A program made the translations under genes and the position numbers. The notes below the pieces were generated by a model. It worked only from the letters and a program-made list of their open reading frames with translations, was not told the origin of the DNA and did no database searches. A stretch of 64,000 bases of DNA from a virus. Location: positions 1 through 64,000 of the IMG/VR virus record IMGVR_UViG_3300035126_000842; one strand, given 5' to 3'. Positions 5,569 to 11,462 of this stretch are shown here, piece by piece. Each line of letters starts with the position of its first letter. Position 1 is the first letter of the stretch.

Positions 5569-5868
5569 ATGACAAAAGAAAAAGTAGTACTACTGGGTAT
5601 TGCTCAGGTACTTCTTAATGAATCAAACCCTACATTTTCAACACTTAACGATTTAATTGAACCGTTTGGTTATGAAGTTGTAGAGAAAAAACCTAAAGTA
5701 AAAAATCAGATTCTAGTTCTTGCTAATACAGAAGAACAAGATGATGAAATTATTACTCTACCTCAACATATTACAGATGAAATTTCTACAGATCGTTTCC
5801 TCGAATCTAGAGGACTTGCTGGTAGAAAATATATTCTGTTTCGTTCTGCGCACAAAAGAACCTATTGA
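5569..5868 (+). CDS. hypothetical protein
   Basis: 99-aa ORF followed by a terminator. Confidence 0.7.
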   Translation: MTKEKVVLLGIAQVLLNESNPTFSTLNDLIEPFGYEVVEKKPKVKNQILVLANTEEQDDEIITLPQHITDEISTDRFLESRGLAGRKYILFRSAHKRTY

Positions 5869-5889
5869 GAGTAGGGTTGTTGATGTCGT

Positions 5890-5916
5890 AAAAAGGGAGC
5901 TAATAACTCCCTTTTT
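5890..5916 (+). terminator. intrinsic terminator
   Basis: AAAAGGGAG-ctaataa-CTCCCTTTTT. Confidence 0.8.
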
Positions 5917-6154
5917 ATATTGTTTTATTTGTTTAATTTTAATTTTTATTTAGTATGAACACTTTGCCCTCAAAAAAATCATTGAAGAAAAGAAGCAAAC
6001 CTTTTAAAGAAGCTTACGGTAAACCTCTAGAAACAAGAAGAATGAGGTTTATGGTTATTAAAAAGGATGCTGAAGGTAAATCTTACGAAGGTTCTGAAAC
6101 CTTATTAGTAAGAGTTTACTAAAAACATTTATCTCAGGATAATGTGCGTAGAAT

Positions 6155-6192: not shown

Positions 6193-7044
6193 ATGAAGAT
6201 TATAAAGCAAACAACAAAGACTCTTGTCACAAGAGATAATGGTCGCAGTTCTGATGCTGTAAGTCCTAATTTTATTTACGGTTGTTTAGGTGGTTGTATG
6301 AAAAGCTACTGCTATGTAGGTAGATTTAACGATGATTGTATTTATGTCAATGAAAATATCGAAGATATATTACAGTCAATAGATACCTGGGTTAGTCAAC
6401 GTTATTTTCCTAAAACACCTACTCAGTGTGACGATACATATTATGTAATTGATATAGGTTGTTCTACTGATATACCACTTAAAAGTAAATATTATGATTG
6501 GAATAGAGTATTTGAATTCTTTAACGATCATCCGCGTCTTAAATCTACCTTTGCTACAAAATACCCGTCGTTATTTATTCCTACTAAATACAATATTAAC
6601 CCTAGTAAGAATAGAATAAGGGTAAGTTTGATGCCGCAGGAATATTCTACCATACTTGAACCCAAAACTGATTTAATAAAAACTAGAATAGAAAGAATTC
6701 CATATCTACAAGAACATATGGAAGTTCATTTAAATTTTAGTCCTATTATTTATCATAAAGGTTGGTTACAGGAATACGAAAAATTATTTAAACAAGTTCA
6801 TAATCTTGGTGTAGAGTTTAAATCAGAATGTATATTTCTTACATACAACGACAAACAGGTAGAAAGAAATAGTGATGAAGTAAACAAGCTATGTTACAAA
6901 CCTCATATACAAGAACTTAAGAATTCTTATTATTCTGATGAAAATATTAGATACAAATCTGATGTTAAAAAGAACTTAGTTAGACAATTTAAGGAATTGT
7001 ATGGTACTTACTTTCCGTTAGAATCTATACGTTACATTTTTTAG
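6193..7044 (+). CDS. spore photoproduct lyase (SplB)-family radical SAM protein
   Basis: GCLGGCMKSYCY cluster motif; DIGCSTD, FATK, IRVSLMP and HLNFSPII segments typical of the SPL-like family. Confidence 0.7.
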   Translation: MKIIKQTTKTLVTRDNGRSSDAVSPNFIYGCLGGCMKSYCYVGRFNDDCIYVNENIEDILQSIDTWVSQRYFPKTPTQCDDTYYVIDIGCSTDIPLKSKYYDWNRVFEFFNDHPRLKSTFATKYPSLFIPTKYNINPSKNRIRVSLMPQEYSTILEPKTDLIKTRIERIPYLQEHMEVHLNFSPIIYHKGWLQEYEKLFKQVHNLGVEFKSECIFLTYNDKQVERNSDEVNKLCYKPHIQELKNSYYSDENIRYKSDVKKNLVRQFKELYGTYFPLESIRYIF

Positions 7045-7066
7045 TAATTTTCATAAAAATTAAATT

Positions 7067-7684
7067 ATGAACGTTAATATTCCTCCTTTAGAATGCTTTG
7101 TCAGAGCAGAGTATCTGTACGACTTTAAAGAAAAACACGGTGAACTTATTGAAGCAACTGCGTTTGCAGTTAAATCACTGCAGTCAAATGCTTTGTTATT
7201 TTATGTAATGACAGACATTGGCGCTGTGTATGATAAAATTCCTATTAGTGCTATAATACCTAGATATAGACCTGTGTCAGAACACTTGTCTTTTGATGTA
7301 TTGCAGTTATGGGATTGTTTTTCATACAAAGCTGAAGCAATAGAGTTTATGTTTCTTAAAGGTAAACGGTGTTCTGTTTATTTAAAAAACAAGCAAATCA
7401 AAGAGGGTGTTTATAGATTTACCATAGATTGGAACAGCGATTCATCAGATGTAATATCTACTTCCTACGCTGAAATCACCCAGGAACATAAGGTAGCACA
7501 TATAATAGAACTGTTTGACGGTTACTATTGTGCTTACCCTAATAATAGAATTCTATGGGCGGAACCATCAGGAGTAGAAAAACCATTTGCTACAATACCT
7601 GATTACAAACTCAACACATCTAAGTTTCATTGTGAGAGTAAAGATAAATGGGCTTCAGAAAATACAGACAAACAATTTTATTGA
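7067..7684 (+). CDS. conserved phage hypothetical protein
   Basis: NVNIP..CFVRAEYLYD...LQLWDCFSY...AYPNNRI pattern recalled from aquatic phages; not searched. Confidence 0.7.
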   Translation: MNVNIPPLECFVRAEYLYDFKEKHGELIEATAFAVKSLQSNALLFYVMTDIGAVYDKIPISAIIPRYRPVSEHLSFDVLQLWDCFSYKAEAIEFMFLKGKRCSVYLKNKQIKEGVYRFTIDWNSDSSDVISTSYAEITQEHKVAHIIELFDGYYCAYPNNRILWAEPSGVEKPFATIPDYKLNTSKFHCESKDKWASENTDKQFY

Positions 7685-7685
7685 T

Positions 7686-7719
7686 TATAAACCAATATGA
7701 CACCTTTCAACACCACTAT
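7686..7719 (+). repeat. 34-bp direct repeat, left copy
   Basis: TATAAACCAATATGACACCTTTCAACACCACTAT is identical to 10179-10212 and is followed by GTTA. Confidence 0.9.
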
Positions 7720-7766
7720 GTTACCAGCTGGGCGGTTTATCAGCACTAAATTTAATTTGAAACGAA

Positions 7767-8105
7767 ATGGAAGAACAAATAATTGATACCCTTAAAAAAT
7801 TCCAACAACAAGACTACAAGCGTGGAGGAGTTTCAATAGCACCTGAAATGTATAATGCTATTTCAAAGCACATTAACGACCATTACAAACGGGTGATAAT
7901 TGATATTTGCAATGAAGATTATTCAAGCGATGAAAAAATAATGGACATTGCCAGAATATTTATACCTGATTACGACCCACATGAAGCATCAGAAGTAAAA
8001 TGCGACTTGTGTAATAGAAAGTGGTTCGCTGTAAGACCACTGGGGATTAATCAATTAGAATGTCCTAATTGTACCAATATGGTTTATTTTGAAAATGTAT
8101 TGTAG
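7767..8105 (+). CDS. cassette ORF with C-terminal Zn-ribbon
   Basis: CDLC...CPNC. Confidence 0.7.
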   Translation: MEEQIIDTLKKFQQQDYKRGGVSIAPEMYNAISKHINDHYKRVIIDICNEDYSSDEKIMDIARIFIPDYDPHEASEVKCDLCNRKWFAVRPLGINQLECPNCTNMVYFENVL

Positions 8106-8109
8106 CCTT

Positions 8110-8187
8110 GCACATAACGTTTTGCAGATACACGCTGTGAGCGTTGGGTTGAGGGCGGAAAAATAGCGTGTATGTGCTGTTATCGGC
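8110..8187. repeat. attC-like hairpin site A
   Basis: GCACATAAC ... GTTATCGGC cores; inner stem ATACACGCT/AGCGTGTAT; asymmetric unpaired spacer. Confidence 0.7.
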
Positions 8188-8232
8188 TGCCCTTTTTTCG
8201 GAATTAATATTAACAATTTAAAATAAAACAAA

Positions 8233-8451
8233 ATGACAGGACAATGTATTTGCTGCGGTAGAACGCAAGATTTAAGATTAGGTGCTTGCTGGGATTGTGC
8301 AGAAGCAGAAAGTGTAATTGAAGATGGAACTGATATGAGAGATGTTGCACCTCCAAAAATAGAAGGTTTATCAACTTCAATGAGTAAGTTACAATACATA
8401 CTTAGAAAGTATATGAAGATAACAACTACTCCTCCGTCAAAGTTAGGGTAG
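8233..8451 (+). CDS. cassette ORF, small Zn-finger-like protein
   Basis: CICC...CWDC; bracketed by GTTATCGGC (8179) and its reverse complement GCCGATAAC (8464). Confidence 0.7.
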   Translation: MTGQCICCGRTQDLRLGACWDCAEAESVIEDGTDMRDVAPPKIEGLSTSMSKLQYILRKYMKITTTPPSKLG

Positions 8452-8463
8452 TCGCTTAGGGTT

Positions 8464-8560
8464 GCCGATAACAATAAATATACGCAACTGTAACCTTTCA
8501 ACCCGTATAAAGTAAAATGGAAAAAGAAAAACAAACTGACGCAAAACCCTTGTTATCGGC
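8464..8560. repeat. hybrid att-like site
   Basis: GCCGATAACAA/TTGTTATCGGC 11-bp inverted repeat; interior carries the AATAAATATACGCAAC and ACCCGTATAAA motifs and does not self-pair. Confidence 0.55.
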
Positions 8561-8600
8561 TGGCACGGTTTATCAGTAGGAAATTAATTAAAAAAAAACA

Positions 8601-8975
8601 ATGCAAACACAAATTTTAATCGGACTATTTATTTGCCATTTTTTAGCAGATTACACACATTTATCAACTGCTTGGATGCTTAATGCAAAGCGACTTGGAA
8701 AGCCATTATTTCCAATATTCATTCACGCTGCAATGCACACTATGTTAATGTCGCTTGTTTTGGGTTGGTTTATTGGCTTTACAAACGATTGGGCTTACTT
8801 AGTAATATTCCAATGGGTAACACACTTCTTAATTGATGTTTGGAAAGGTAGATTGAATGGTTGGTTTCCTGCACTACAATCACCTGCTAATAAATGGCAT
8901 TGGATTGTGTTTGGATTTGACCAATTACTTCACGCTTTGGTTATTATAGGGATGTCGTTATATGCAGTATCGTAG
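8601..8975 (+). CDS. DUF3307-like membrane protein (cassette ORF)
   Basis: HFLADY, H..MH, HFLID and FGFDQLLH His/Asp motifs within TM helices. Confidence 0.75.
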   Translation: MQTQILIGLFICHFLADYTHLSTAWMLNAKRLGKPLFPIFIHAAMHTMLMSLVLGWFIGFTNDWAYLVIFQWVTHFLIDVWKGRLNGWFPALQSPANKWHWIVFGFDQLLHALVIIGMSLYAVS

Positions 8976-8979
8976 CCTT

Positions 8980-9078
8980 GAACCTAACAATAAATATTCA
9001 AATCGCAACCTTTCACCACCAAACCCGTATAAAGTAATATGAACGAACAAACTAAACTCGAAATCCTGTGTTACCTGC
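8980..9078. repeat. hybrid att-like site
   Basis: GAACCTAAC-AATAAATAT...AAACCCGTATAAAGTAA-ATG...GTTACCTGC; same layout as 8464-8560. Confidence 0.5.
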
Positions 9079-9128
9079 CGTTCTTTAAAATATAGCCTTG
9101 GACGGGCTTTGTAAAATCCATAAATATT

Positions 9129-9467
9129 ATGAATATAGAACAAATTGCAAAAACGTGCCACGAAGTAAACAAGGCATTTTGTGAAAGCATTGGAGATTTA
9201 TCACAACCAAGTTGGGAAAATGCTCCACAATGGCAAAAAGAGAGTGCTGTTAATGGCGTAAACTTCCATTTATCAAACCCAAATTCAAAACCGTGTGACA
9301 GCCATAACAATTGGATGGCTGAGAAATTAAAAGATGGTTGGAAATTTGGAGACGTGAAAAATCCAGAAACAAAAGAACACCCTTGTATTGTTGCTTACGA
9401 GCAATTGCCGAAAGACCAACAAACAAAAGACGCTTTGTTTATTTCAGTTGTACGCTCTTTCGAGTAG
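9129..9467 (+). CDS. RyR-domain-like phage protein (cassette ORF)
   Basis: HNNWMAEKLKDGWKFG...KEHPCIVAYEQLP..QQTKD. Confidence 0.75.
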   Translation: MNIEQIAKTCHEVNKAFCESIGDLSQPSWENAPQWQKESAVNGVNFHLSNPNSKPCDSHNNWMAEKLKDGWKFGDVKNPETKEHPCIVAYEQLPKDQQTKDALFISVVRSFE

Positions 9468-9513
9468 TAATTTGTGTGTTCGTAGGACTGTTCTTCGGAG
9501 CGGTCTTACGGTT

Positions 9514-9649
9514 GCACCTAACGGTTCGGGTATTGCCGAAGGCAGGGATTTGAAAGACAAAAGTTTCAACCTTGCACAAATACCCAATAGAATTAAAAAC
9601 GATTAATTAACCGAGAACGCCCTGCTTTTGGCAATACCTTGTTAGGTGC
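9514..9649. repeat. attC-like hairpin site B (complete)
   Basis: Perfect GCACCTAAC/GTTAGGTGC cores; inner GGTATTGCC/GGCAATACC and GCAGGG/CCCTGC stems; long variable loop. Confidence 0.75.
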
Positions 9650-9674
9650 AGTGCTTCTCACAAATTTTGAAAAT

Positions 9675-9905
9675 ATGAAAACTTCAACACAAGAACTAAT
9701 TGAAAGAGTTAAATCAGTTGATAACATTAGAAGCCTTGTTACTTGGCTAAATAAAAATGAAAAACGATTGATTGAACAAGAACGTGAATTGCTAAAAGAT
9801 GTGTCTGTCAATTCACAAAGAGATTACATAAATGCTGGTGAATGTTATCCACCGCAATTTGTGGTAGATAGGGCTAATAATGTTATCAACGAGTTGCTTT
9901 CATAG
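9675..9905 (+). CDS. cassette ORF, hypothetical
   Basis: ATG at 9675; bracketed by GTTAGGTGCAGTGCT and AGCATTTCACCTAAC (13/15 complementary). Confidence 0.7.
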   Translation: MKTSTQELIERVKSVDNIRSLVTWLNKNEKRLIEQERELLKDVSVNSQRDYINAGECYPPQFVVDRANNVINELLS

Positions 9906-9909
9906 CATT

Positions 9910-9970
9910 TCACCTAACAATAAATATACGCAACCCGCAACAATTCACCCTTAAACCCGTATAAAGTAAC
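9910..9970. repeat. half att-like site plus leader repeat
   Basis: CACCTAAC-AATAAATATACGCAAC...AAACCCGTATAAAGTAA. Confidence 0.55.
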
Positions 9971-10159
9971 ATGGCAAAAAAAGAACCGAAGTTAAAACAC
10001 ATAGTAATTGTTGGGAAATTCGATGATGACAAATGCCGTCAAGTATTGATTAATCCAAAAACTCAGGATGTGGTATTGTCTGCAATAGTTGCATGCGAAG
10101 GTAGTGTTAGAGTACTTGATAAAGTTATTGATAATATTGACATTGAAATACCTGAATAA
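9971..10159 (+). CDS. hypothetical protein
   Basis: 62-aa ORF starting 5 nt after ACCCGTATAAA. Confidence 0.65.
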   Translation: MAKKEPKLKHIVIVGKFDDDKCRQVLINPKTQDVVLSAIVACEGSVRVLDKVIDNIDIEIPE

Positions 10160-10178
10160 CCTTTTCACTTCAAACCCG

Positions 10179-10212
10179 TATAAACCAATATGACACCTTT
10201 CAACACCACTAT
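10179..10212 (+). repeat. 34-bp direct repeat, right copy (includes start of ORF 10190)
   Basis: Identical to 7686-7719. Confidence 0.9.
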
Positions 10213-10675
10213 CATCGAAACGCCAGAAACCAACTTAGACTGGCTGTATCAGTTCGAACTTCCCGATGGTCGCACGGCTTTTATCGAACCTCACGCAATC
10301 GACCACGCCAATCCGTACCAGTACCATTCGTTCCTGCTGAATGACATCAGGAATAATCAGGTACTTGACATTAGGCAAGGCATAATCACCCCGAAACAAG
10401 TCTATCGGGACTGGTTCGTGATGCCGTATCAATCATTCAGGGGACAATACTTCTTCCAACTTATCATGCCCGAGTTGATTCTGGATGGATGGGATATTGA
10501 AGAACTGCTCAAAATGGAGAAGGAGTTTGACTATAAAGGACACAACGCATTCAAGTTATACCGCAACGACTACGGGCATACTTGCTATAATGTCGAAACG
10601 ATTGATAGGAACTACACCGGCATAGATGGCTGGTATATTGGAATAATCAAAGACAAGGAGGTGCAAGATGTTTGA
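10190..10675 (+). CDS. hypothetical protein (visibly higher GC than genome background)
   Basis: 161-aa ORF with many C/G-ending codons. Confidence 0.7.
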   Translation: MTPFNTTIIETPETNLDWLYQFELPDGRTAFIEPHAIDHANPYQYHSFLLNDIRNNQVLDIRQGIITPKQVYRDWFVMPYQSFRGQYFFQLIMPELILDGWDIEELLKMEKEFDYKGHNAFKLYRNDYGHTCYNVETIDRNYTGIDGWYIGIIKDKEVQDV

Positions 10676-10952
10676 GATAAACGGCAAAATTTATACAGAA
10701 CGCCCACAACAACCTAAAAAGAAAAACAGAATAGGTAGGATTGAACTTATGGCAATGGCAATGACTTACATTAATCCGTACGATTACGGAGGCTCAAATT
10801 ATACCAGACCTTTTCCGAAGTTAAAAAATAGTTTGGTTGAAGAATTTAGGCTCATTCAGGAAAAGAAATCAAGCCTTTCAAGAGCCGAAAGAAAAATGGT
10901 TGAAAATCGATTTCATACAGTTTATCAGGAGGTGCAAGATGAAAACAATTGA
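10668..10952 (+). CDS. hypothetical protein
   Basis: 94-aa ORF flanked by AGGAGGTGCAAGATG repeats (10656, 10927). Confidence 0.7.
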   Translation: MFEINGKIYTERPQQPKKKNRIGRIELMAMAMTYINPYDYGGSNYTRPFPKLKNSLVEEFRLIQEKKSSLSRAERKMVENRFHTVYQEVQDENN

Positions 10953-11139
10953 AAAGATAGTAACAGCGACAATTGTAATTTACTTTTTGATTTTGTTGAA
11001 TATGCTTAATGTTCATATTATTAAATCAATTGGTAGTGATTTTGCTTTCTTGATTTTTATTCCTCAGATTGCAATAGGATTTGTTTCAGGATATAATTTT
11101 TTTAGGATTCACAATTTAATTTGGAATTATAACCGATGA
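10939..11139 (+). CDS. small membrane protein
   Basis: ATG at 10939 (ORF track starts at 10837); two TM segments. Confidence 0.6.
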   Translation: MKTIEKIVTATIVIYFLILLNMLNVHIIKSIGSDFAFLIFIPQIAIGFVSGYNFFRIHNLIWNYNR

Positions 11140-11462
11140 GAAATAACACGTACACTTACCGATTTTTTTATGCTGTAGGATTTTACGGTCTTACTGTTAG
11201 CTCTATTGTATTATCTATAGCATGGATTGTTACAAGCAATAGTAGAGATAAATCAGCAGAAATGGAATTATACTGGCGCAACCAATACATTGAAAGTAGA
11301 TTACTACTTAACAAATGTGTCAGGGAAAACGATGTTTTGATAGATATTTTTACAGCTCAAGATGTAGGCATATGTGCTATATATTGCGATGAAGTAAGAG
11401 AATTTAAAGAAGCTTTAATTAAAAAACATTACAAACCGAATGAAAAAGAAAATAACAATTGA
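11136..11462 (+). CDS. membrane-anchored hypothetical protein
   Basis: N-terminal TM; ATGA overlap with the previous gene. Confidence 0.6.
   Translation: MRNNTYTYRFFYAVGFYGLTVSSIVLSIAWIVTSNSRDKSAEMELYWRNQYIESRLLLNKCVRENDVLIDIFTAQDVGICAIYCDEVREFKEALIKKHYKPNEKENNN

Follow-up and report, generated by a model that had tools for sequence, protein, structure and literature searches.

Probable integron-type gene cassettes in a phage without its own recombinase, at sites of a Bacteroidota-specific hairpin family

The window, a stretch of 64,000 nucleotides, belongs to a 122,313-bp lake phage in which a 2.5-kb stretch consists of five small, swappable gene cassettes in a row. The block lies between two copies of a 34-bp direct repeat, 7686–7719 and 10179–10212, which the initial annotation had called perfect and which a repeat search found to be exact (D3). 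As also described there, GTTA opening and TAAC closing cores flank each of the five cassette ORFs (7767–8105, 8233–8451, 8601–8975, 9129–9467 and 9675–9905), and the complementary ends of two units were recovered as inverted repeats I2 (28 nt, 79%) and I11 (17 nt, 88%). A scan of the whole 122,313-bp genome located four copies of the CCCGTATAAA motif, all inside the block, three copies of TAACAATAAATAT, likewise confined to it, and four copies of TGTTAYCNGC in the block with one stray at 75860. Within the 122-kb genome, the GTTA/TAAC cores and the AATAAATAT module occur in the block only, and the GC content of the block is 36% versus 31% for the genome. The features, all on the + strand, are listed below; a vertical bar marks a unit boundary.

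7686–7719, +: left 34-bp copy; promoter −10-like TATAAA, ATG and the opening 23 nt of ORF10190 (family F2), which is cut short here and joined to TGTTACC
7720–8117, +: cassette c1; right-hand core remnant (T)GTTACCAGC, gene1 and end GCACATAA|C, without a hairpin of its own
8107–8190, +: attC-like hairpin J1, a short variant with cores GCACATAAC and GTTATCGGC
8118–8471, +: cassette c2; hairpin J1, gene2 and end GCCGATAA|C, ends complementary (I2)
8472–8550, +: docking-like module 1; CAATAAATATACGCAAC-TGTAAC, promoter CCCGTATAAAG and a truncated F21-like gene start (ATG at 8517, ~11 codons)
8551–8987, +: cassette c3 body; core TGTTATCGGC, gene3 and end GAACCTAA|C
8988–9068, +: docking-like module 2; promoter and the start of phage gene F21 (ATG at 9039, 10 codons), which breaks off at CTGTG|TTACC
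9069–9521, +: cassette c4 body; core TGTTACCTGCC, gene4 and end GCACCTAA|C
9511–9652, +: attC-like hairpin J4, with perfectly complementary cores GCACCTAAC / GTTAGGTGC
9522–9917, +: cassette c5; hairpin J4, gene5 and end TTTCACCTAA|C, ends complementary (I11)
9918–9970, +: docking-like module 3; CAATAAATATACGCAAC-CC-GCAAC and the gene6 promoter
9971–10159, +: gene6 (family F8, 62 aa), no cassette but part of the donor phage group's gene backbone
10179–10212, +: right 34-bp copy, the start of intact ORF10190 (10190–10675, family F2)

Two of the three cargo assignments made from the letters were upheld by Pfam, gene3 encoding a DUF3307 membrane protein (5.4e-14) and gene4 a RyR-domain protein (RyR, 2.9e-10; phrog_5154). 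The third, a Zn-finger in gene1 (112 aa, C-terminal Zn-ribbon), matched weakly (E = 0.072). Gene2 encodes 72 aa with CxxC...CxxC, and gene5 encodes 76 aa. The C-terminus and end motif of gene1 are found again ahead of a full hairpin in contig L035, and a gene4 homologue in L118 lies in a hairpin-bounded cassette, where similarity extends from TGTTA to TAAC. In a blastn search of GenBank phages, the block retrieved gene4 relatives only. Gene6 shares 85–90% nucleotide identity with L002–L012, in which the F8–F2 synteny is conserved and the 5′ region of the left 34-bp copy heads an intact gene; the gene6–ORF10190 segment is thus common to the block and another phage group.

Two full attC-like hairpins had been proposed in the block. 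J4 is a strong one, with an asymmetric spacer (6 nt versus 2 nt), a 16–19-bp stem and a 70-nt loop. Its DNA fold has −30.1 kcal/mol (z = −5.2), and in the R1 family covariance model it scores 118.8 bits on the + strand versus 35 bits on the − strand (E = 3.5e-25). It is the single nhmmer match in the 122-kb genome. J1 is only a short, weak variant, with a fold z of −0.9 and 21.4 bits in the R1 model (E = 0.0012, 4.5 kb searched); it is homologous to L010:7371–7514 (55 bits), with compensatory changes present, and its flanks and outer stem resemble family members in L010 and L035. The three junctions other than J4 gave E values of 0.0006–0.009 against the family model (4.5 kb searched). IntegronFinder defines a CALIN as at least two attC sites close together with no integrase nearby. 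Here, two folded sites lie 1.3 kb apart, accompanied by two unfolded sites (8461–8563 and 8977–9081; 17.6 and 22.8 bits) that keep both cores at attC-like spacing, and the CALIN label holds for the window only if the family is accepted as attC-like.

In a pattern scan, the J4 family was found in more than 118 IMG/VR contigs and many Bacteroidota genomes. Among the matches listed, the true ones are nearly all from Bacteroidota, and the sites belong to a family specific to this phylum. The pattern, having a single variable gap, misses short-loop copies, and a perfect-stem hairpin scan detects the strongest type only, missing J1. An alignment of 46 sequences contains 21 consensus pairs, eight of which show double compensatory changes. 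Rfam returned no relevant family at E ≤ 10, and blastn with J4 gave no match among GenBank phages (50,697 records). The comparison with bacteria and phages by covariance model, suggested in the initial annotation, recovered an array family in Bacteroidota chromosomes as well as in phages.

The family shares several features with attC sites. The inverted R″ (RYYYAAC) and R′ (GTTRRRY) cores with their AAC/GTT triplets are present; of 379 copies, 263 have TAAC and 63 have CAAC as the left core, while at the right core 291 have GTTA and 61 have GTTG. The inner stem (L″/L′) is kept by structure rather than sequence, and an unpaired central spacer (5′, 5–6 nt; 3′, 2 nt) separates a 5-bp core helix from a 16-bp stem in the consensus. 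This asymmetry appears to differ from that of classical attC sites. Strand choice at attC sites is set by extrahelical bases in the L box; the consensus stem here has no bulged bases and carries instead a GAAG/TTTT quartet, itself set by the search pattern, which forms G·T wobbles on the model strand and A·C mismatches on the other and could be the source of strand asymmetry. In place of a variable terminal structure, most copies have a loop of about 70 nt (a minority, in L012, L085 and L097, have short loops), whose family consensus holds three conserved repeats of about 20 nt with the core ACnAAnGTT. A loop that is conserved and carries repeats, where classical attC sites have a variable one, hints at a different function or binding protein.

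The bacterial copies form same-strand arrays of one-gene units. In genome G001, at least 150 scored copies, all on one strand, span 3,478,164–3,974,177 (~0.5 Mb). A tyrosine recombinase gene lies 0.4–3.3 kb from the last copy, in a fixed orientation, in four of five genomes; in the exception, G003, the best IntI-like match adjoins no hairpin, so that adjacency holds for four genomes and not all. Against TIGR02249 (IntI), the array-side recombinase scored 178–209 bits, below the cut-off of 265, so that the association with an IntI integrase, a Xer relative carrying an IntI-specific extra domain, that marks attC sites is absent from these arrays. Its best NCBIfam model is NF040815 'XerA_Arch / integron integrase' (211–225 bits, cut-off 220) and its best PDB match is XerA 4a8e, VchIntIA being matched only in two stretches. 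Judged by its sequence, the enzyme appears to be Xer-like and nearer to archaeal XerA than to IntI.

That the window lacks a tyrosine recombinase, as first reported, extends to the whole 122-kb genome, in which PF00589 had no match. Nor did it match in five other phage records, four of them 96–100% complete by CheckV, and a tyrosine recombinase regex run over the fetched viral loci hit one chance locus only. Since the phage encodes no recombinase, we infer action in trans; of the integrase in trans that had been proposed, the trans component is retained, with an array-side enzyme that is apparently Xer-like and falls below the IntI thresholds. Flanking ORFs in phages all run with the model strand whereas those in bacteria run mostly against it, which means that the phage cassettes have not simply been copied from typical host cassettes. 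One core-bounded cassette on a phage contig, L021:205–876, corresponds to G004 1,147,852–1,148,514 in a bacterial array with 88.4% identity.

Ends of homology blocks in the bacterial arrays fall near TAA|C in 145 cases versus 8 near the other core; in phage contigs, 23 lie at TAA|C versus 0 at the other core. These ends place the crossover on the TAAC side and not at the + strand GTTA. The proposed cut at G/TT thus stands as G|TTA on the − strand, equivalent to TAA|C, and fails for the + strand GTTA; the boundary corresponds to that of attC sites at R′ G|TT (AA|C on the bottom strand). Three junctions in the window (7719/7720, ~8550 and ~9068) lie at the TGTTA core, which family-wide is seldom a breakpoint. 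The block had been thought to begin exactly at GTT after the 34-bp copy. We do see a fusion to TGTTACC there, but the junction G at 7719/7720 is missing from the native gene. In L274, a close relative, module 1 gives way to module 2 at 2–6 nt ahead of G|TT, a position more readily explained by short homology than by exact site-specific exchange. On these two grounds, we rejected an exact G|TT crossover at the three leader|TGTTA junctions.

Whole cassettes separate the window from L274 and L275, two near-identical phages (97–98% nucleotide identity); the breakpoints are at the cores or a few bases off. In L275, whose flanks are 97% identical, a single cassette is present versus five in the window. 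The 1.8-kb difference has TAA|C at both ends, includes cassette c2 and ends on the right at the right boundary of c5, and the L275 junction GCACATAA|CAATAAATAT joins the window flanks of 8118–9917. The L275 cassette holds a different 53-aa ORF, with the gene1-type 5′ UTR and the TAGCCTTGCACATAAC end unchanged. L274 is without the gene3 unit; it also contains an additional gene, which is bounded by a 22-bp repeat (promoter plus ATGACACC) and is not accompanied by a hairpin. The empty allele predicted at the outset (7719 joined to 10213) was found in neither relative, both of which retain the left 34-bp copy. Elsewhere, positions 8505–9071 are 100% identical to L005:5836–6402, at a different genomic position, and different cassette sets are inserted at CCCGTATAA|C in L010 and L012, within a promoter that is uninterrupted in L002 and others. 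The HNH gene of the L010 cassette was tried as a boundary guide against its L002 homologue and proved too diverged. Capture and shuffling of Bacteroidota-type cassettes, as first proposed, are thus supported by the array family, the L274/L275 differences and the L021–G004 shared cassette. The second route then offered, recombination between repeats, also operates, as indicated by promoter-repeat-bounded indels in L274 and L005. Gene boundaries away from the cores or ordinary terminators would have argued against the cassette reading; the ends we observed fall predominantly at TAA|C, and a simple scan showed no terminators.

The remaining sites had been read as non-pairing hybrids. They do not fold, but rather than degenerate attC sites they are docking-site, promoter and leader modules in which TAA|C precedes a docking-like AATAAATAT-ACGCAAC module, a promoter of the phage and ~10 codons from a truncated phage gene. 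The 55 bp at 9017–9071 also head the intact F21 gene in L002, L004, L005, L006, L007 and L008. Module 1 resembles the G004 site between the recombinase gene and the first cassette, and the docking-like module is also like the site beside an isolated cassette in L149. From two bacterial examples, the module may be likened to a bacterial attI-like site.

Family membership, the structure of the bacterial arrays, the breakpoint positions and the cassette polymorphism of near-identical phages were all observed directly. We consider it probable (roughly 0.7) that 7720–9917 is a phage-borne cluster of five integron-type cassettes without a recombinase of its own, the enzyme acting in trans. On the + strand, a cassette unit would start at the C of one TAA|C core and finish with the TAA of the following one, with a folding site still at the left end of c2 and c5, and the hairpin + strand would be the recombinogenic 'bottom' strand of an attC site. 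Phage promoter modules would carry, at their upstream edge, the short docking sequence beside which cassettes insert (− strand, GTTGCGTATATTTATTG|TTA). The reaction would be catalysed by a tyrosine recombinase of Xer/IntI type that comes from the Bacteroidota host or from a co-infecting phage, and the sites may need to fold as single strands. In the presumed order of events, homologous or short-homology recombination between promoter-leader modules would then add, delete and move units; it would also have made the three truncated-gene-start/TGTTA fusions, and probably the 34-bp flanking repeat.

A less probable explanation, which nevertheless accounts for part of the data, sees the hairpins and promoter modules as regulatory cassettes that move, comparable to the PeSL of T4-type phages (PMC2839356, PMC4122927). 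Only homologous or short-homology recombination in co-infection would move them, with no site-specific recombinase acting on phage DNA, and the likeness to bacterial arrays would reflect capture of phage units by bacteria. PeSL are likewise repeated promoter and stem-loop motifs beside small accessory genes in hyperplastic regions, where they mark the ends of indels that distinguish close relatives. In the phages studied here, promoter CCCGTATAAAG recurs ahead of many donor-group genes, the extra gene of L274 is flanked by its hairpin-free promoter repeat, the block shared with L005 begins on the left within the promoter motif, the L274 deletion junction is compatible with short homology, and the phage hairpin is always sense, as expected of an RNA-level or transcription-linked element. 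PeSL exchange, however, is homology-driven and has no counterpart in host recombination-site arrays, whereas the stem-loop described here is a member of a host array family and phage breakpoints fall at one core triplet (23 versus 0), the same as in the bacterial arrays. In L010 and L012, the insertion splits the promoter motif itself at TAA|C with the hairpin directly attached, and the AAC/GTT triplets are kept over hundreds of copies. The simple scan of the block revealed no intrinsic terminators and no excess of sigma-70 promoters.

It is very improbable that the units are MITEs or non-autonomous, IS200/IS605-like palindrome-associated single-strand transposons served by a transposase encoded elsewhere, even though structured hairpins with a short conserved flanking tetranucleotide (TTAC/TAAC-like), inverted-repeat ends on several units and a phage without a recombinase would suit them. 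Elements of the IS200/IS605 type carry subterminal hairpins at both ends, rely on a Y1 HUH transposase and insert 3′ of a fixed tetra- or pentanucleotide; we found a single hairpin per unit, and in bacteria head-to-tail, same-strand arrays of hundreds adjoining a tyrosine recombinase, and noticed no HUH transposase context in passing. Least likely of all, chance cores and repeats or ordinary terminator hairpins in a horizontally acquired segment would agree with the GC content of the block and with the gene6–ORF10190 segment shared with another phage group, but are already contradicted by the model E values of J4 and the other three junctions, the confinement of the motifs to the block, family-wide covariation, the absence of terminator-like sites in the scan, the TAA|C block ends and the L274/L275 comparison.

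Beyond the cassette cluster itself, a broader proposal, which we hold tentatively and at somewhat under even odds, is that gene cassettes circulate in one economy, common to Bacteroidota and their phages and driven by a Xer-like recombinase other than IntI, with docking at phage promoters and cassette traffic in both directions. Host arrays would hold hundreds of cassettes, up to ~0.5 Mb, and phage arrays would be shorter, with the same sites and with genes on the opposite strand relative to the site. A recombinase-less lytic phage could load and unload accessory genes in an enzyme-expressing host, and one phage cassette that appears to be decaying in a host array would indicate passage both ways.

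Integrons are best known as platforms of bacteria, and the few phage cases published so far have attC sites of the classical type. Clusters of attC sites in phages were already known, CALINs in phage genomes having been published in 2023 (Qi et al. 2023, PMC9892861). Like the cluster described here, these lie in integrase-less genomes, including those of virulent phages, among them a Polaribacter (Bacteroidota) phage, with at least two attC-type sites bounding small genes and inverted GTTRRRY motifs at array boundaries (PMC9892861). Unlike ours, their sites were found with classical attC models and are recombined by IntI1, whereas the J4 family has a near-constant 140-nt form, a conserved repeat-bearing loop and a Xer-like enzyme in bacteria, and in phages always has genes on the model (bottom) strand. 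The bacterial arrays resemble sedentary chromosomal integrons such as the Vibrio cholerae superintegron (VCR), with long same-strand arrays of one-gene cassettes, homogeneous structured sites of ~120–140 nt, RYYYAAC/GTTRRRY-type cores, a G|TT crossover at the distal core and a tyrosine recombinase at one end. They differ in that the recombinase falls below IntI thresholds, is nearest archaeal XerA and has its gene pointing into the array rather than away, in sites with no evident bulged extrahelical bases, and in the length of the G001 array (at least 0.5 Mb). We found no publications on the J4 family, its Xer-like enzyme or the reversal of gene orientation seen in phages.

The attG sites, secondary targets of integron cassettes (Loot et al., bioRxiv 10.1101/2022.09.11.507474), offer a parallel to the insertions in the phage promoter motif and to the lone cassette of L149: cassettes enter double-stranded genomic sites outside attI, and excision at or beyond the insertion point can later rearrange the flanks. 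The enzyme differs, however, and the 5′-GWT-3′ that attG keeps at the cut does not fit the phage promoter site, where the relevant strand has T|TTATACGGG.

If the proposal is true, an entire phylum, together with its viruses, relies on a parallel system that works with another enzyme, and phages swap small accessory genes, with likely host-takeover or counter-defence functions, without encoding the machinery. This would explain whole-gene differences in the early regions of near-identical isolates of these phages. Hairpin 9511–9652 and the 20-nt docking sequence would form a concrete testable pair, with which the origin of folded-single-strand recombination by a Xer-type enzyme could be studied. 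We also looked for the docking module beside phage-encoded recombinases; L282 and L284 have a recombinase by hairpins, but the sequence there is not AATAAATAT-ACGCAAC. L284 has a tmRNA-like 3′ end and may be an integrated element.

We read the cassette block of this phage as a cluster of attC-type cassettes on which a recombinase would act in trans. The initial annotation is confirmed as an observation and supported in its interpretation, with the side of the crossover, the class of enzyme and the nature of the hybrid sites corrected below. The IMG/VR source record, of which the window is the first 64 kb, is 122,313 bp long; its ends overlap by about 145 bp, and its completeness is 100% (CheckV). 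The 34-bp direct repeat claimed to be perfect is exact (7686-7719 and 10179-10212), and the five proposed single-ORF units correspond to five small ORFs, each flanked by a GTTA and a TAAC core. With the crossover point placed at TAA|C, the cassettes are as follows.

Cassettes of the block, all with TAA|C boundaries
c1, 7720-8117
c2, 8118-8471, opens with a hairpin
c3, 8472-8987, opens with CAATAAATAT-ACGCAAC, then promoter CCCGTATAAAG, ATG, about 10 codons and TGTTA
c4, 8988-9521, opens with CAATAAATAT-ACGCAAC, then promoter CCCGTATAAAG, ATG, about 10 codons and TGTTA
c5, 9522-9917, opens with a hairpin

Within the 122 kb, the motifs CCCGTATAAA, TAACAATAAATAT and TGTTAYCNGC are confined to the block, apart from a sole stray TGTTAYCNGC at 75860. 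As for the cargo, the DUF3307 (gene3) and RyR (gene4) domains were recovered, while the Zn-finger appeared only as a weak Zn-ribbon match in gene1; gene2 carries paired CxxC motifs. The absence of a tyrosine recombinase holds beyond the window, no PF00589 domain being found in the whole 122-kb genome.

The hairpin noticed at 9514-9649 is real: the stretch 9511-9652 folds at -30.1 kcal/mol (z = -5.2) and scores 118.8 bits with R1, the covariance model of the family (+ strand of the window). The second hairpin, 8107-8190, scores 21.4 bits, and two unfolded window junctions reach 22.8 and 17.6 bits through their cores only. The related phage contigs L010 and L012 carry sites of this design in which base changes are compensatory. 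A scan with the inner-stem pattern yielded at least 118 stretches from IMG/VR and at least 120 from bacterial genomes. Among the matches listed, full-length bacterial ones are almost all from Bacteroidota, with Chitinophagales, Saprospirales, Flavobacterium, Kaistella, Myroides, Cyclobacteriaceae and Spirosomataceae as carriers. In an alignment of 46 copies, 8 of the 21 consensus pairs show double compensatory changes; the ATTGSC/GAAG...TTTT/GSCAAT positions were preset by the search pattern, and the flanking stem and the TAAC/GTTA cores were free in the first scan. No Rfam family matches the hairpin.

Consensus of the hairpin family, in order
Part 1, GC-NNN-TAAC
Part 2, G and 5-6 unpaired bases
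Part 3, 16-bp stem, with G.T wobbles on the model strand
Part 4, loop, about 70 nt long, holding three repeats (about 20 nt each)
Part 5, two unpaired bases
Part 6, TGTTA-NNN-GC

The loop is not variable and contains three repeats in tandem, each about 20 nt long and with the core ACnAAnGTT (model R1, alignment A3; window 9548-9618). Such conservation suggests that the loop may bind a protein or serve a second function.

In the complete Bacteroidota chromosome G001, at least 150 scored copies, all on one strand, lie between 3,478,164 and 3,974,177, and a direct search over 200 kb of this array returned about 100 copies. Neighbouring bacterial copies usually enclose a single ORF, which lies opposite the model strand and has its stop beside a hairpin. 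In integron terms, attC follows the ORF in the bacterial unit, and the model strand corresponds to the bottom strand. Crossover had initially been placed at the + strand GTTA; this does not hold, as ends cluster at TAA|C. In the G001 and G004 arrays, 145 ends of paralogous cassettes fall within 20 nt of TAA|C versus 8 near the other core, and the internal ends of viral homology blocks of at least 92% identity give 23 versus 0. Many ends of viral homology blocks are far from any detected hairpin.

The genome's best TIGR02249 match lies 0.4-3.3 kb past the last copy, with its 3' end towards the array, in four bacterial genomes (G001, at 3.3 kb, G002, G004 and G005, the last being the cultured carrier Nubsella zeaxanthinifaciens); in a fifth, G003, it is not adjacent to hairpins. 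With TIGR02249 (cut-off 265) these array-linked proteins reach 178-209 bits, and with NF040815, 'XerA_Arch / integron integrase' (cut-off 220), 211-225 bits. Among solved structures the archaeal XerA (4a8e) is their best relative, and VchIntIA is matched in two separate stretches; we infer that the IntI-specific insertion is missing. Because of their layout and the TAA|C cassette ends, the bacterial arrays are built like sedentary chromosomal integrons, their enzyme being Xer-like. The G001 array as a whole (G001:C1:3,478,164-3,986,625; loci L163 and L259-L268) spans about 0.5 Mb and gave 1,917 first-look candidates; if confirmed, it would exceed the Vibrio superintegrons in size.

Among phages, nhmmer found 209 copies spread over 100 IMG/VR loci, with at least three copies in 22 of them; orientation is mixed in one locus only and the median spacing is 802 nt. 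One locus of 12.6 kb has up to about 14 copies (covariance model). Of five array-bearing or related phage records, four are 96-100% complete and one 57% (CheckV); terminase matches were obtained in three of the five, and PF00589 in none. Orientation contrasts between phage and host: viral ORFs flanking hairpins lie with the model strand (74 versus 0 against; loci L013-L130), whereas bacterial ones are mostly against it (31 versus about 7; loci L131-L250). One cassette is shared core to core between phage and bacterium (L021:205-876 and G004:C2:1,147,852-1,148,514; 88.4% over 675 bp); the phage copy has an intact ORF, and in the bacterial copy this ORF is broken across three frames. Two viral or integrated contigs, L282 and L284, have beside their hairpins a recombinase that is a 35-46% relative of the array-linked enzyme. 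Along the viral-labelled L284 (4690-5985), three hairpins come first, next a tmRNA-like 3' end, and after it the recombinase, which shares 35% identity with the array-linked enzymes; this contig may not be a free phage but an integrated element.

A putative docking sequence, GTTGCGTATATTTATTGTTAGG, accompanies the sites. The module AATAAATAT-ACGCAAC, which on the other strand reads GTTGCGTATATTTATTG|TTA, adjoins TAA|C three times in the window and also in L005, L010/L011, L012, L019, L025, L076, L129 and L275. In G004, a similar GTTGCGTTTATTTGGATG|TTATGGG, preceded by two AAATAAACGCAAG repeats, separates the recombinase gene from the first cassette, and another similar sequence stands beside a single isolated cassette amid housekeeping genes (bacterial locus L149). 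Since a loose regular expression for the module is expected to give about ten chance matches in the DNA examined, only matches in R-box context were counted. From these few bacterial cases, the module would parallel attI.

The window sites described as non-pairing hybrids are indeed unfolded, and their nature is that of docking-like, promoter and leader pieces of phage backbone, because the 55 bp at 9017-9071 match the promoter and first codons of phage gene family F21 (intact in L002, L004, L005, L006, L007 and L008) and the left copy of the 34-bp repeat is likewise the start of ORF10190. A gene4 homologue (55%) sits within a hairpin-bounded cassette of the viral locus L118, with nucleotide similarity from TGTTA to TAAC, so c4 is a normal cassette with its hairpin replaced.

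Close relatives, which the initial annotation had proposed to compare, do differ at the cassettes. Searching metagenomes with the upstream protein gave two contigs, L274 and L275, whose flanks are 97-98% identical. L275 shares the left repeat and the TGTTA junction, after which comes one cassette only, encoding a 53-aa Zn-ribbon ORF with the 5' UTR of gene1 and the same TAGCCTTGCACATAAC end. Because L275 then runs through CAATAAATAT into gene6, window 8118-9917 is an indel with TAA|C at both ends. L274 lacks about 8553-9070, comprising gene3 and module 2, the second of two promoter-leader stretches (8472-8550 and 8988-9068). Its junction is GCAAAACCTG-TGTTACCTGCC, where module 1 gives way to module 2 at 2-6 nt before G|TT; judged by this position, recombination between the 76%-similar modules would fit at least as well as an exact site-specific cut. 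At 5680-5935, L274 further carries an extra gene of about 80 codons without a hairpin between gene6 and ORF10190. As this gene is bounded by a 22-bp repeat of promoter and ATGACACC (CCGTATAAACCAATATGACACC), the promoter with its start codon is a shuffling joint in its own right.

In L010 and L012, different cassette sets are joined at CCCGTATAA|C, the promoter CCCGTATAAAG being intact in L002 and others, and the L012 insert has a 12-bp repeat of the CCCGTATAAAG motif on both flanks. The gene3 unit and L005 share 567 bp at 100% identity; in L005 the unit precedes an intact F21, and neighbouring genes are only 85% identical. In L010 (6242-6480), a 79-aa gene is inserted in the 3' end of the conserved gene F1, with neither core nor hairpin at its ends; not all indels in these phages use the sites. 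A cassette leader of L010 (6640-6757) has a putative promoter of Bacteroidota type (TTTG, about 20 nt, TATATTTG), which would point to a Bacteroidota host.

The right half of the segment (gene6, ORF10190 and two more genes) is, at the nucleotide level, 85-90% identical to the L002-L012 phage group over 9951-10946 and about 67% identical beyond 10946 (11135-11389). Given this relatedness and a GC content of 36% over about 7686-11462 versus 31.7% genome-wide, the stretch from 7686 to about 11460 looks to have been imported recently from that group. Many genes of the group have the motif AAACCCGTATAAAG 4-5 nt upstream of ATG, as does the window at 8500-8519, 9022-9041, 9954-9973 and 10173-10192; the spacing suggests promoters of leaderless or near-leaderless mRNAs.

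In the trans-serviced cluster that we propose, strand exchange at TAA|C would join folded sites to the docking sequence or to look-alike promoter sites, catalysed by a Xer/IntI-like recombinase that comes from the host or from a co-infecting phage, and general recombination between repeated promoter-leader modules would add further shuffling. A circular intermediate integrating by a single crossover within the start of ORF10190 would leave the 34-bp repeat. The nearest mechanistic precedents are attG secondary-site insertion and PeSL shuffling. A 2023 paper (PMC9892861) described phage CALINs whose attC sites are classical and in part recombined by IntI1, and a review places Bacteroidota among the phyla with integrons (PMC8618304). 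In the literature, which was incompletely covered, neither this site family nor its Xer-like enzyme nor the contrast in orientation between phage and host turned up.

Upstream of the block, window 6193-7684 encodes a radical SAM protein resembling spore photoproduct lyase (Pfam SPL, 1.7e-11) and also a phrog_3704 protein annotated as ferredoxin (3.9e-65).
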